From Escherichia coli (GTDB taxonomy: Bacteria; Pseudomonadota; Gammaproteobacteria; Enterobacterales; Enterobacteriaceae): a DNA stretch of 64,000 nt. Made by a program: the position numbers and the translations under genes. Below, one piece after another: positions 2,763 through 30,133 of the stretch (within the stretch, counting starts at the first letter, position 1; the number at the start of each line of letters is the position of its first letter). The notes under the pieces are model-generated. The model did no database searches and was not told the origin of the DNA. It saw only the letters and a program-made list of their open reading frames with translations. The stretch lies in the NCBI RefSeq assembly GCF_003334785.1, contig NZ_QOWV01000006.1, one strand, 5' to 3'.

Positions 2763-4037
2763 ATGGCAAGCAGTAACTTGATTAAACAATTGCAAGAGCG
2801 GGGGCTGGTAGCCCAGGTGACGGACGAGGAAGCGTTAGCAGAGCGACTGGCGCAAGGCCCGATCGCGCTCTATTGCGGCTTCGATCCTACCGCTGACAGC
2901 TTGCATTTGGGGCATCTTGTTCCATTGTTATGCCTGAAACGCTTCCAGCAGGCGGGCCACAAGCCGGTTGCGCTGGTAGGCGGCGCGACGGGTCTGATTG
3001 GCGACCCGAGCTTCAAAGCTGCCGAGCGTAAGCTGAACACCGAAGAAACTGTTCAGGAGTGGGTGGACAAAATCCGTAAGCAGGTTGCCCCGTTCCTCGA
3101 TTTCGACTGTGGAGAAAACTCTGCTATCGCGGCGAACAACTATGACTGGTTCGGCAATATGAATGTGCTGACCTTCCTGCGCGATATTGGCAAACACTTC
3201 TCCGTTAACCAGATGATCAACAAAGAAGCGGTTAAGCAGCGTCTCAACCGTGAAGATCAGGGGATTTCGTTCACTGAGTTTTCCTACAACCTGTTGCAGG
3301 GTTATGACTTCGCCTGTCTGAACAAACAGTACGGTGTGGTGCTGCAAATTGGTGGTTCTGACCAGTGGGGTAACATCACTTCTGGTATCGACCTGACCCG
3401 TCGTCTGCATCAGAATCAGGTGTTTGGCCTGACCGTTCCGCTGATCACTAAAGCAGATGGCACCAAATTTGGTAAAACTGAAGGCGGCGCAGTCTGGTTG
3501 GATCCGAAGAAAACCAGCCCGTACAAATTCTACCAGTTCTGGATCAACACTGCGGATGCCGACGTTTACCGCTTCCTGAAGTTCTTCACCTTTATGAGCA
3601 TTGAAGAGATCAACGCCCTGGAAGAAGAAGATAAAAACAGCGGTAAAGCACCGCGCGCCCAGTATGTACTGGCGGAGCAGGTGACTCGTCTGGTTCACGG
3701 TGAAGAAGGTTTACAGGCGGCAAAACGTATTACCGAATGCCTGTTCAGCGGTTCTTTGAGTGCGCTGAGTGAAGCGGACTTCGAACAGCTGGCGCAGGAC
3801 GGCGTACCGATGGTTGAGATGGAAAAGGGCGCAGACCTGATGCAGGCACTGGTCGATTCTGAACTGCAACCTTCCCGTGGTCAGGCACGTAAAACTATCG
3901 CCTCCAATGCCATCACCATTAACGGTGAAAAACAGTCCGATCCTGAATACTTCTTTAAAGAAGAAGATCGTCTGTTTGGTCGTTTTACCTTACTGCGTCG
4001 CGGTAAAAAGAATTACTGTCTGATTTGCTGGAAATAA
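2763..4037 (+). CDS. tyrS: Tyrosyl-tRNA synthetase
   Basis: Class I aaRS HLGH motif (GHLVPL) and KFGKT (KMSKS-type) motif; 424 aa from MASSNL (ORF track starts 4 codons upstream at 2751). Confidence 0.95.
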
Positions 4038-27133: not shown

Positions 27134-28399
27134 ATGAGAAAAATAGTGGCCATGGCCGTTATTTGCCTGACGGCTGCCTCTGGCCTTACCTCTGCTTATG
27201 CGGCGCAACTGGCTGACGATGAAGCGGGACTACGCATCAGACTGAAAAACGAATTGCGCAGGGCGGATAAGCCCAGTGCTGGCGCGGGAAGAGATATTTA
27301 CGCATGGGTACAGGGAGGATTGCTCGATTTCAATAGTGGTTATTATTCCAATATTATTGGCGTTGAAGGCGGGGCGTATTATGTTTATAAATTAGGTGCT
27401 CGTGCTGATATGAGTACCCGGTGGTATCTTGATGGTGATAAAAGTTTTGGCTTTGCCCTGGGGGCAGTAAAAATAAAACCCAGTGAAAATAGCCTGCTTA
27501 AATTAGGTCGCTTCGGGACGGATTATAGTTATGGTAGCTTACCTTATCGTATTCCGTTAATGGCTGGCAGTTCGCAACGTACATTACCGACAGTTTCTGA
27601 AGGAGCATTAGGTTATTGGGCTTTAACACCAAATATTGATCTGTGGGGAATGTGGCGTTCACGAGTATTTTTATGGACTGATTCAACAACCGGTATTCGT
27701 GATGAAGGGGTGTATAACAGCCAGACGGGAAAATACGATAAACATCGCGCACGTTCTTTTTTAGCCGCCAGTTGGCATGATGATACCAGTCGCTATTCTC
27801 TGGGGGCATCGGTACAGAAAGATGTTTCCAATCAGATACAAAGTATTCTCGAGAAAAGCATACCGCTCGACCCGAATTATACGTTGAAAGGGGAGTTGCT
27901 CGGCTTTTACGCGCAGCTCGAAGGTTTAAGTCGTAATACCAGCCAGCCCAATGAAACGGCGTTGGTTAGTGGACAATTGACCTGGAATGCGCCGTGGGGA
28001 AGTGTATTTGGCAGTGGTGGTTATTTGCGCCATGCAATGAATGGTGCCGTGGTGGATACCGACATTGGCTATCCCTTTTCATTAAGTCTTGATCGTAACC
28101 GTGAAGGAATGCAGTCCTGGCAATTGGGCGTCAACTATCGTTTAACGCCGCAATTTACGCTGACATTTGCACCGATTGTGACTCGCGGCTATGAATCCAG
28201 TAAACGAGATGTGCGGATTGAAGGCACGGGTATCTTAGGTGGTATGAACTATCGGGTCAGCGAAGGGCCGTTACAAGGGATGAATTTCTTTCTTGCTGCC
28301 GATAAAGGGCGGGAAAAGCGCGATGGCAGTACGCTGGGCGATCGCCTGAATTACTGGGATGTGAAAATGAGTATTCAGTATGACTTTATGCTGAAGTAA
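27134..28399 (+). CDS. uidC: Outer membrane beta-barrel protein for glucuronide uptake
   Basis: 421-aa ORF with signal peptide and C-terminal aromatic residue. Confidence 0.9.
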   Translation: MRKIVAMAVICLTAASGLTSAYAAQLADDEAGLRIRLKNELRRADKPSAGAGRDIYAWVQGGLLDFNSGYYSNIIGVEGGAYYVYKLGARADMSTRWYLDGDKSFGFALGAVKIKPSENSLLKLGRFGTDYSYGSLPYRIPLMAGSSQRTLPTVSEGALGYWALTPNIDLWGMWRSRVFLWTDSTTGIRDEGVYNSQTGKYDKHRARSFLAASWHDDTSRYSLGASVQKDVSNQIQSILEKSIPLDPNYTLKGELLGFYAQLEGLSRNTSQPNETALVSGQLTWNAPWGSVFGSGGYLRHAMNGAVVDTDIGYPFSLSLDRNREGMQSWQLGVNYRLTPQFTLTFAPIVTRGYESSKRDVRIEGTGILGGMNYRVSEGPLQGMNFFLAADKGREKRDGSTLGDRLNYWDVKMSIQYDFMLK

Positions 28400-28406
28400 A
28401 AAATAA

Positions 28407-28433
28407 CGCCGGAGAGAAAAATCTCCGGCGTTT
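28407..28433 (+). terminator. Rho-independent terminator after uidC
   Basis: Stem CGCCGGAGA...TCTCCGGCG followed by TTT. Confidence 0.7.
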
Positions 28434-28463
28434 CAGATTGTTGACAAAGTGCGCGTTTTTTAT

Positions 28464-28560
28464 GCCGGATGCGGCGTAAACGCCTTATCCAGCCTACAAA
28501 AACTCATAAATTCAAAGTGTTGCAGGAAAAGGTAGGCCTGATAAGCGTAGCGCATCAGGC
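28464..28560. repeat. REP pair (BIME-like): GCCGGATGCGGCGTAAACGCCTTATCCAGCCTACA and GGTAGGCCTGATAAGCGTAGCGCATCAGGC
   Basis: Two inverted canonical REP-like units in the uidC-ydgA intergenic region. Confidence 0.8.
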
Positions 28561-28580
28561 AATCTCTGGTTTGTTTTCAG

Positions 28581-28611
28581 ATGAAAACGCCGGAGTGAAA
28601 ATTCTCCGGCG
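28581..28611 (-). terminator. Rho-independent terminator after ydgA
   Basis: Stem CGCCGGAGT...TCTCCGGCG with a U-run on the minus strand; near-identical to the uidC terminator hairpin. Confidence 0.6.
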
Positions 28612-28624
28612 TTTTGGCCGTGAA

Positions 28625-30133
28625 TTACTGCTGCGGAATTGCCGGTACAGCCGGAACGTTAAGAGCTGGCATCGCAAACATGCCAACAAAATCTTCTAAC
28701 GACATTTTCTGCCCATTTAACGTTATCTGACCGTTAGCATATTGCAGGCTGGTGGTGATGGTATTGTCCTGCAAGGTGGTCAGACGGAACATCTGCCCCA
28801 TTGCTGATGCACCTTCAACTTGCTGTTTCGCCAGTTTTTTCGCTTGATCTTCCTGATAACCTTCCAGCTTCGCTACCTGAGTCACAAACTCAGTTGCCAT
28901 ATCCACCGGAATGGTCAGTTTCGCATCCAGAGATTTAACCGAACGATCTACTTCCTGCGCCAGCGTTTGCGGCGCTTCTTTAGTCGTTGCCGGATCTTTC
29001 AGGAACAGCGACAGATTCAGGGCACTTTCACCCTGACTGTTTTTCCAGCTTAGCGGCGCGATAGTAATCACCGGATCGCCTTTCAGCATCAGCGGCAGGG
29101 CGCTAAAGAAGGCTTCCGTCACTTTCTCCTGATAAAGTTCGGGGTTGTTGGCAATTTCTGGCTGTGCCAGCAGCGCCTGAGTTTGCGCGTTATATTGCTG
29201 GCTAAACTGATGCCAGGCTTCACCATCAATCTGGCCGACTTTTAAAGTCAGCTTGCCGCTGCCCAGATCCTGATTCTGTACCTTCAGGCTGTTTAGCGAG
29301 TAATCCAGTTGGCTATTGATCGTTTTACCGTCATTGACCAGATCCGATTTACCGCTGATCTCCATGCCTTCCAGCAGTGCCAGTTCTTTGCCTTCCACTG
29401 AAATGGTCATTTTTTCCAGTGACAGTTTTTGATTTCCTACACGCTCACCAAAACTTGCCAGCGTGCTGGAACCGTCGGTTTTCAGATTATTAAAGGTCAA
29501 CTGCACTTTCTGGTTGTATTCGTTAACTGCGTCTATCCGACCACTTTGCGCCTCCCCGGAAAGGGAGATGGCTTTGCCGTCTCTGTCAGCATTTAACTGG
29601 AACTCGCCGCCGCTAAAGGCGACTTTTTCATCCTTTTGCTCGTAATTCAGTGGCTTGAGCGAAATATCGGAACTGGAATCACCGCTGTAACCAATGCGCG
29701 AGTTAATCTCAAAAGGCGTTTCACCTTTTGCCATATCAAACAGTGGTTTGCTTACTTCGTTATTAACCAGCGTGGTTTGAATTGATGCCATCGACGGGAT
29801 CAGGTTCAGTTTTTTAAGCTGGGCAAGCGGGAAGGGACCATGATCAACCGATTCGTTGAAGATGACGCTCTGACCGCTTTTAATCCACGGATTTTCTTTC
29901 CCGGCAATGGGTTTCACCAACAGTTGCAACTGGCTGCTGAATACGCCGCGATGATAGTTTTGATAACTCACTTCCAGGTTGGATTCAGGAGCTGTCAGTT
30001 TGAGTTGCGCGTTCGCCTGCGCGACCATGTCTTCGAGATGGGTTTCAATCTTCTTGCCTGTATACCATGCGCCGCCTGTCCAGACTACGCCTAGCGCAAC
30101 AATGACGCCTACCGCTACCAGCGATTTATTCAT
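28625..30133 (-). CDS. ydgA: DUF945-family periplasmic protein YdgA
   Basis: 502-aa ORF with N-terminal signal/anchor; recognised YdgA. Confidence 0.9.
   Translation of the reverse strand: MNKSLVAVGVIVALGVVWTGGAWYTGKKIETHLEDMVAQANAQLKLTAPESNLEVSYQNYHRGVFSSQLQLLVKPIAGKENPWIKSGQSVIFNESVDHGPFPLAQLKKLNLIPSMASIQTTLVNNEVSKPLFDMAKGETPFEINSRIGYSGDSSSDISLKPLNYEQKDEKVAFSGGEFQLNADRDGKAISLSGEAQSGRIDAVNEYNQKVQLTFNNLKTDGSSTLASFGERVGNQKLSLEKMTISVEGKELALLEGMEISGKSDLVNDGKTINSQLDYSLNSLKVQNQDLGSGKLTLKVGQIDGEAWHQFSQQYNAQTQALLAQPEIANNPELYQEKVTEAFFSALPLMLKGDPVITIAPLSWKNSQGESALNLSLFLKDPATTKEAPQTLAQEVDRSVKSLDAKLTIPVDMATEFVTQVAKLEGYQEDQAKKLAKQQVEGASAMGQMFRLTTLQDNTITTSLQYANGQITLNGQKMSLEDFVGMFAMPALNVPAVPAIPQQ

Follow-up and report, generated by a model that had tools for sequence, protein, structure and literature searches.

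A terminator-type stem-loop stands in two copies around a polymorphic BIME-1 element between uidC and ydgA of Escherichia coli, and similar stem-loop repeats abut BIME-1 elements at other loci

Results

The uidC-ydgA spacer holds two near-identical stem-loops

The window, i.e., the whole 64-kb stretch of DNA analysed here, is 100% identical to MG1655-type records, and MG1655 positions follow from window coordinates w as 1719985 - w. Our subject is the 225-bp spacer between uidC, which encodes the glucuronide porin, and ydgA (Table 1). RefSeq annotation agrees with a first-pass annotation of this DNA that the two genes converge on this spacer. The uidC stop codon lies 5 nt ahead of hairpin L and that of ydgA 10 nt away from hairpin R, with a single pair of Y and Z1 REPs between the two stop codons. 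No further matching REPs were found in the 64-kb window. Repeat features are absent from the RefSeq records for the spacer. Taken by itself, the site is an ordinary polymorphic BIME-1 locus, a known repeat type in a well-studied strain.

Table 1. Features of the uidC-ydgA spacer and its flanking genes in window coordinates
Feature	Position	Strand	Basis or detail
uidC CDS (glucuronide porin)	27134..28399	+	ORF list, RefSeq annotation
Hairpin L, uidC-proximal copy	28405..28433		stem 28405-28415 / 28422-28432, loop GAAAAA
BIME-1 (RIB/RIP-type), 152 bp	28434..28585	+	compared with 44 other BIME-1 loci
Polymorphic unit, 181 bp (BIME-1 plus one hairpin copy)	28434..28614		register arbitrary within the repeat
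BIME-1 left arm (CAGATTGTTGACAAAGTGCGCG... at 28434-28455)	28434-28462	+	20/21 to consensus
Y REP	28464-28497	+	1 mismatch versus consensus
L linker, 34 nt	28498-28531	+	sequence
IHF-type core TCAA-N4-TTG, ATTCAAAGTGTTG	28512..28522	+	linker comparison
Z1 REP GTAGGCCTGATAAGCGTAGCGCATCAGGC	28532-28560	+	same as Z1 arm in most of 44 reference loci
BIME-1 right arm, degenerate	28561-28585	+	9/15 to consensus
Hairpin R, ydgA-proximal copy	28586..28614		stem 28584-28595 / 28604-28615, loop UGAAAAUU
ydgA CDS	28625..30133	-	ORF list, RefSeq annotation

The first-pass annotation had placed two near-identical hairpins, CGCCGGAGAGAAAAATCTCCGGCG and CGCCGGAGTGAAAATTCTCCGGCG, at 28407-28430 and 28588-28611, and these positions proved exact. 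The likeness extends further, to a direct repeat of 29 nt with 27/29 identities and a start-to-start spacing of 181, and both mismatches fall in the loop region. The pattern GCCGGAG-N4-12-CTCCGGC is matched only by hairpins L and R within the 64-kb window, and none of 100 shuffled sequences contained any match; these shuffles and the mismatched-locus null described below reject chance as the source of the hairpin pair.

Both copies are GC-rich stem-loops adjoining stop codons, and stable folds are predicted for both, whichever strand is taken (-20 to -24 kcal/mol, z about -5.4 to -6.6). On the minus strand, hairpin L is followed by UUAUUUUUU, and this was the sole combination of copy and strand that passed a strict terminator scan (a hairpin plus at least 5 T in 8). 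The U tract that follows the proximal copy is only 3-4 U in length, with UUUC in the uidC direction and UUUUC in the ydgA direction, while the native tracts at the distal copies read UUUUGG for uidC and UUAUUUUUU for ydgA. That L and R serve as paired bidirectional terminators, as had been suggested at first pass, is plausible from the predicted stability of stem-loops so close to the stop codons. Each gene would then keep a terminator-like stem-loop with a short U tract by its stop codon, and the distal copy would retain the longer native U tract for its direction, so that the pair may act as tandem bidirectional terminators enclosing a REP-containing spacer with a putative IHF site.

The element between the stem-loops is a BIME-1

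The two inverted REP units that the earlier annotation had recognised in the spacer are the Y and Z1 REPs of Table 1. Comparison of the whole interval with other loci identifies it as a canonical BIME-1, composed of Y REP, IHF-type linker, Z1 REP, and conserved arms. Its left arm has zero mismatches to CAGATTGNTGACAAAGTGCGCG. The linker core reads ATTCAAAGTGTTG here and ATTCAATATATTG in most other BIME-1 copies, with TCAA-N4-TTG kept; IHF binding to the BIME-1 linker is taken from the literature (PMC3333891). At many BIME-1 loci, the left arm bears a small palindrome, ACAAAG-TGCG-CTTTGT, which is degenerate in the uidC copy (28445-28460). A search of Rfam returned the REP-type family naRNA4 below threshold (37 bits versus 59.5). 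Folded as single-stranded DNA, the whole unit reached -49.5 kcal/mol (z = -6.2), with a centroid that pairs parts of the Y and Z1 halves and a minimum-energy fold made up mainly of local hairpins. Hairpins L and R are two copies of one terminator-type stem-loop split by a 152-bp BIME-1.

Most E. coli genomes carry a single stem-loop and no BIME-1 at this locus

The locus was found in either form in 5415 of 5426 complete E. coli genomes. The full hairpin-BIME-hairpin arrangement is present at 99-100% identity in 1751/5426, and the BIME left arm was found in these same 1751 genomes. An evenly spaced sample drawn from the ranking of the other genomes comprised only alleles that are exactly 181 bp shorter (370 versus 551 nt), a difference of one repeat period. 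In the aligned short alleles, a lone hairpin, preceded by an A tract and followed by a T tract, is fused straight to the ydgA flank with no BIME. The short allele is the majority form and includes O157:H7 and ST131 strains; the long allele constitutes a single tight haplotype of 99-100% identity.

The single hairpin of short-allele strains has the sequence of hairpin L. Its loop was L-type in every short allele examined and R-type in none, and a synthetic R-type short allele used as query against the 5426 genomes retrieved nothing better than L-type matches. This lack of any R-type short allele makes it less likely that deletions arose often and independently with crossovers at random points. 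The uniform L-type loop is better explained by a single deletion or by an old empty allele than by deletions that recurred frequently.

Two proposals made at first pass can be judged by these data. The hairpin pair had been put forward as a possible substrate for recombination, and about 68% of complete E. coli genomes indeed carry the one-hairpin, 181-bp-shorter product expected from such a process. A comparison of the spacer across strains had also been proposed, with absence of the hairpin duplicate from related genomes as an argument against the reading. On running this comparison, we found the second hairpin absent in most strains, yet this absence explains the structure and does not refute it. 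The succession of direct repeat, quasi-palindrome, and direct repeat proves unstable, to judge from the precise one-copy product that most E. coli carry.

Several individual genomes differ around the spacer. In E. coli isolate 624, pseudogene fragments replace uidC beside a lone hairpin, and strain L37 matches the spacer on its hairpin-ydgA side alone, as if the uid side had been deleted. In E. coli O157:H7 EDL933, the annotation lists uidA as well as uidC as a frameshifted pseudogene.

The filled state appears older than E. coli

Relatives of E. coli bear on which of the two alleles came first. E. whittamii has the complete hairpin-BIME-hairpin arrangement, at a difference from K-12 of about 10% that equals that of the flanking genes. 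In strain SCPM-O-B-8794, from a divergent lineage with about 91-95% identity in ydgA and manA, the hairpin next to ydgA is present together with the Z1 half of the BIME. In E. albertii, one hairpin stands downstream of ydgA and is directly followed by AGGCTGATGACAA, which matches the BIME-1 right-arm terminus at 12/13 positions. In Salmonella and Citrobacter, the terminators are unrelated, and no uid genes follow ydgA. We infer that BIME-1 has been seated at the ydgA terminator since before the split of E. coli and E. albertii. Because the filled form or its remnants occur in E. whittamii, SCPM-O-B-8794, and E. albertii, the common short allele of E. coli most likely represents a secondary, precise deletion between the two hairpin copies.

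The surroundings of the element have been rearranged in several of these genomes. In SCPM-O-B-8794, BIME-1 ends within the linker past the Z1 REP, and unrelated DNA replaces the Y half together with uidC. Beyond the 13-nt arm remnant of E. albertii, the DNA is unrelated to uidC, and no uidC homologue aligns. Escherichia sp. MOD1-EC7003 (about 3575-3640 of its record) has a lone hairpin with a loop exactly reverse-complementary to that of E. albertii (GAGAAAATTC versus GAATTTTCTC) and with a palindrome lengthened to GCCAAAACGCCGGAG/CTCCGGCGTTTTGGC; other sequence stands there in place of the final uidC codons, so that the reading frame enters the hairpin. This hairpin looks like the outcome of a template-switch or palindrome-perfecting event.

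A different polarity has to be weighed, namely that the short one-hairpin allele is ancestral and that K-12-type lineages gained BIME-1 and the second hairpin recently, by insertion or by recombination with a divergent Escherichia. The predominance of the short allele (O157:H7 and ST131 included), the uniform L-type hairpin in all short alleles examined, and the tight haplotype of the long allele would all agree with such a gain, and so would the neighbouring sequence. The last ~80 nt of ydgA (its 3' end, 28640-28715) fall into two deep haplotypes that differ at about 14/76 positions and go with the long and short forms of the spacer, respectively; identity drops to 90-92% over about 200 nt, compared with 97-100% elsewhere, as an imported segment would look. 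The K-12-type haplotype shares states with SCPM-O-B-8794, E. albertii, and MOD1-EC7003, whereas the short-allele-type haplotype shares states with E. whittamii. These two deep haplotypes indicate that inter-lineage recombination has shaped the region, and introgression thus complicates its history. However, a BIME or its remnant at the same junction in E. whittamii, SCPM-O-B-8794, and E. albertii speaks against a recent gain, as do the hairpin copies, which already differ at 2/29 positions. The divergence of about 10% between the K-12 and E. whittamii copies, similar to that of flanking genes, further makes a recent transfer from E. whittamii unlikely, and the filled state would be older than E. 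coli even under introgression. We therefore regard recent gain as unlikely, though as the most serious competitor to a secondary deletion.

Stem-loop repeats abut BIME-1 elements at other loci

A scan of metagenome contigs for the BIME-1 core yielded 120 stretches that represent 44 distinct E. coli-like loci, or 45 with the uidC copy. At each of them, we aligned the 50-nt flank beyond the left arm with its 50-nt counterpart beyond the right arm. A null was obtained by setting left flanks against right flanks of other loci, and its 99th percentile was the cut-off. A flank-to-flank direct repeat above this cut-off was present at 11/45 loci versus 0.45 expected, and the uidC-ydgA flanks scored 48 against a null 99th percentile of 19. 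The direct score exceeded the inverted score at nine of the 11 repeat-bearing loci. Among BIME-1 loci with both arms intact, 7/12 have the repeat. As a small control that offers only a weak contrast, 0/17 non-BIME-1 REP clusters on the same contigs had flanking repeats.

At each of the 11 loci, repeat and element end meet closely (-1 to +2 nt), in the form [repeat]|CAGATTG...CAGTCTC|[repeat], and the repeat consists of a complete stem-loop of 16-29 nt with a locus-specific sequence of which both copies still fold. Differences between the copies are sometimes paired and stem-preserving, such as a C-G pair that became T-A at cluster 28. The highest repeat identity (23/23) occurs at cluster 27, which is not from E. 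coli. At about three quarters of the 45 sampled BIME-1 loci, no duplication is recognisable, so that it is either often lost or not obligatory. Flanking genes could be identified for five repeat-bearing loci (uidC-ydgA, pitA-uspB, rlmC-artJ, ysgA-metE, and tsx-yajD), and all of them are convergent pairs.

Individual loci vary in how the repeat is preserved. In the rlmC-artJ spacer (380-560 of its record, E. coli strain L37), to which a weak secondary hit had pointed, the hairpins AAGCCGCATGTGCGGCTT and AAGCCGCGGTTGCGGCTT enclose a BIME-1; their 7-bp stems are identical, and their loops differ. At cluster 22 (core 2947-3012 of its record), the duplication runs past the hairpin into non-palindromic TTTTGGCGAAAAAA, and the element lacks its right arm. 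The BIME-1 site between tsx and yajD occurs in E. coli in length classes of about 627, 586, and 447 nt of a 631-nt query, which points to decay in several steps and not to a polymorphism of just two states.

Empty sites were found beyond uidC-ydgA. The pitA-uspB locus is filled in 1940/5426 genomes, and the remainder are 173 bp shorter with one hairpin that is identical to the uspB-proximal copy. In the filled spacer (2620-2830 of a K-12-like record), the pitA-proximal copy has 4 loop nt fewer than the empty-site hairpin. An exact look-up of the UspB protein, meant to supply an outgroup for the polarity at pitA-uspB, returned E. coli contigs only. At ysgA-metE, two hairpin copies enclose BIME-1 in a non-coli Escherichia with about 93% identity to E. 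coli (spacer at 1350-1660 of its record), and one copy shows a compensatory C-G to T-A stem change. Coverage of this filled sequence stays below 80% in all 5426 E. coli genomes, and K-12 and another strain have a single hairpin at the site. In sum, BIME-1 at many loci has a copy of a locus-specific stem-loop at each of its exact ends, both in direct orientation, and relatives have one-copy empty sites.

This recurrence bears on how the hairpin pair at uidC-ydgA is to be understood. Intrinsic terminators share composition, and each of the two hairpins lies a few nucleotides from a stop codon, so one might take them for two independently evolved terminators of uidC and ydgA that are alike by convergence, with the REP pair merely between them. 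The 27/29 identity nevertheless takes in most of the loop, hairpins of different loci are far less alike (the null 99th percentile of 19 against 48), one hairpin serves both genes in most strains, and the pairing recurs at 10 other BIME-1 loci with locus-specific sequences. One-hairpin strains, null scores, and recurrence all contradict independent origins, which we consider scarcely credible.

Hardly more credible is the idea that the hairpins are terminal parts of a mobile element, comparable to long terminal repeats (LTRs), with the lone hairpin as a solo remnant after loss. The one-copy product is formally what solo-LTR formation leaves, but the flanking hairpins are wholly different among loci while the element between them is conserved, and these locus-specific sequences contradict hairpins that belong to the element. 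The ysgA-metE hairpin moreover stands alone in every E. coli and would serve there as the local terminator-like structure.

A proposed history of insertion and loss

We think it probable that a terminator stem-loop was duplicated whole when BIME-1 integrated and that the uidC-ydgA short allele is a later precise deletion. BIME-1 would have integrated at a terminator hairpin in an ancestor shared by E. coli, E. whittamii, and E. albertii, and this integration would have duplicated the entire stem-loop, similar to a target-site duplication that is sized by the hairpin and not by a fixed stagger. The simplest mechanism, which is speculative, would start with cuts at both feet of a hairpin or cruciform that had been extruded; the element would then be joined, and fill-in would follow. 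Loss could then occur by slippage or recombination between the hairpin copies, favoured by the quasi-palindromic element between them. That the duplication arose at insertion we infer from the recurrent pattern together with the empty sites, as opposed to an observed insertion event. Since repeat-mediated deletion leaves an identical empty site, such sites alone do not prove duplication at insertion.

The regularity of the repeat also weighs on a scenario of survivorship, in which BIME-1 inserts anywhere, the hairpin is duplicated separately (e.g., by replication template switching at the palindrome), and only copies with two terminators persist. All repeat-bearing loci with identified genes are convergent, where loss of a terminator would be costly, and folding is retained in both copies, in places via paired substitutions, which selection of this kind would explain. 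Yet separate duplication is unlikely to have placed the repeat so regularly, within -1 to +2 nt of the element termini in 11/11 cases, and we give this scenario little credence, albeit more than independent or element-borne hairpins.

Compared with duplication at insertion as such, we are less sure of the broader proposal that BIME-1 spread by structure-directed integration into terminator hairpins, with a duplication length set by the hairpin; we offer it tentatively, as a possibility that we do not favour over its negation. One consideration against any duplication at insertion comes from the usual candidate enzymes for REP movement. Transposition of the IS200/IS605 type by Y1 (HUH) transposases is described as making no target duplications (PMC3333891, PMC2817692), and TnpA-REP, the Y1 transposase that is the usual candidate for moving REPs, is of this family.

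Discussion

REP and BIME elements make up about 1% of the E. coli genome (PMC3333891), and how they move has been an open question since the 1980s. The accessible literature covers BIME-1 structure, IHF binding, strain polymorphism, and models of TnpA-REP action, and according to these papers no target duplication or MITE-like signature for REP or BIME elements is known. A recurrent whole-hairpin duplication at the exact ends of the element, together with matching empty sites, offers a concrete and testable footprint. It predicts a target (terminator stem-loops, mostly between convergent genes) and breaks at the two feet of the hairpin, as well as a built-in route to precise loss. If the structure-directed integration proposed above is true, this would be the first sequence footprint of REP/BIME insertion in E. 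coli and would explain how BIME elements come to sit at gene 3' ends without destroying termination and how they can be lost precisely.

For the genes concerned, gain or loss of BIME-1 would alter the 3' untranslated region and the U tract of two genes together while the terminator hairpins stay, which may be relevant to expression differences between strains. The practical message for the uidC-ydgA locus is modest, and the recurrent whole-hairpin duplication is the part that merits attention.

Comparison with known systems

No mention of a flanking hairpin duplication at BIME-1 was found in the accessible literature, although older studies from the 1990s may have described it. The abstract of a 1997 study by Bachellier in Genetics is said to mention "excisions of a whole BIME-1". 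In a 2010 survey, about 10% of small variable E. coli segments were flanked by direct repeats and palindromic-unit loci were counted separately, with no passage found that ties direct repeats to palindromic-unit loci (PMC2884548).

Among mobile REP systems, the closest relative is the REPIN/RAYT pair, in which REP doublets are thought to be mobilised by the Y1 transposase TnpA-REP (PMC3116915, PMC8049555, PMC3333891). The uidC-ydgA element resembles these doublets in its inverted REPs and in slow gain and loss among strains; REPIN doublets can fold into one long hairpin, as the two REPs here may. In contrast to REPINs, the conserved unit here reaches about 30 nt beyond each REP and is flanked by duplications of 16-29 nt.

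With miniature inverted-repeat transposable elements (MITEs) such as Correia and ERIC, the element shares a length of about 150 bp, non-coding content, flanking direct repeats, and empty sites in relatives, and it has imperfect terminal inverted repeats (CAGATTGCTGACAAA versus GAGACTGATGACAAA, 12/15). Direct repeats that abut the ends and one-copy empty sites are thus both present, but a fixed duplication length is not. MITE duplications are short and of fixed length (PMC3184786), whereas those found here are variable, 16-29 nt long, and comprise a whole stem-loop. A classical MITE would have a fixed duplication length and a cognate transposase; as duplication length here varies with the hairpin, BIME-1 should not be classed as one.

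The loss of the element has a counterpart in precise excision of Tn10 and Tn5, which proceeds by host-mediated slippage between 9-bp target duplications and is promoted by inverted repeats. Both systems share the succession of direct repeat, palindrome, and direct repeat as well as a one-copy product that restores the original site, while the repeats described here are two to three times longer than 9 bp and are themselves hairpins.

The hairpin of the short allele, finally, resembles a bidirectional intrinsic terminator, with A and T tracts and a predicted fold on both strands; the long allele differs from such terminators in that the hairpin is doubled and each proximal copy is left without most of the native U tract. 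A preprint places 78 REPs within 306 sequence-predicted bidirectional terminators (bioRxiv 10.64898/2026.03.23.713779). BIME-1 itself has been described as a pair of inverted Y and Z1 REPs around a long conserved linker with an IHF site, single-copy per locus, extragenic, and located at gene 3' ends (PMC3333891). The uidC-ydgA element corresponds to this BIME-1 (RIB/RIP) type by its single pair of inverted Y and Z1 REPs between two genes and by its conserved outer arms, and its long linker holds a putative IHF-type core; what sets it apart from BIME-1 as described in the accessible papers is mainly its bracketing by a duplicated, locus-specific terminator-type hairpin.
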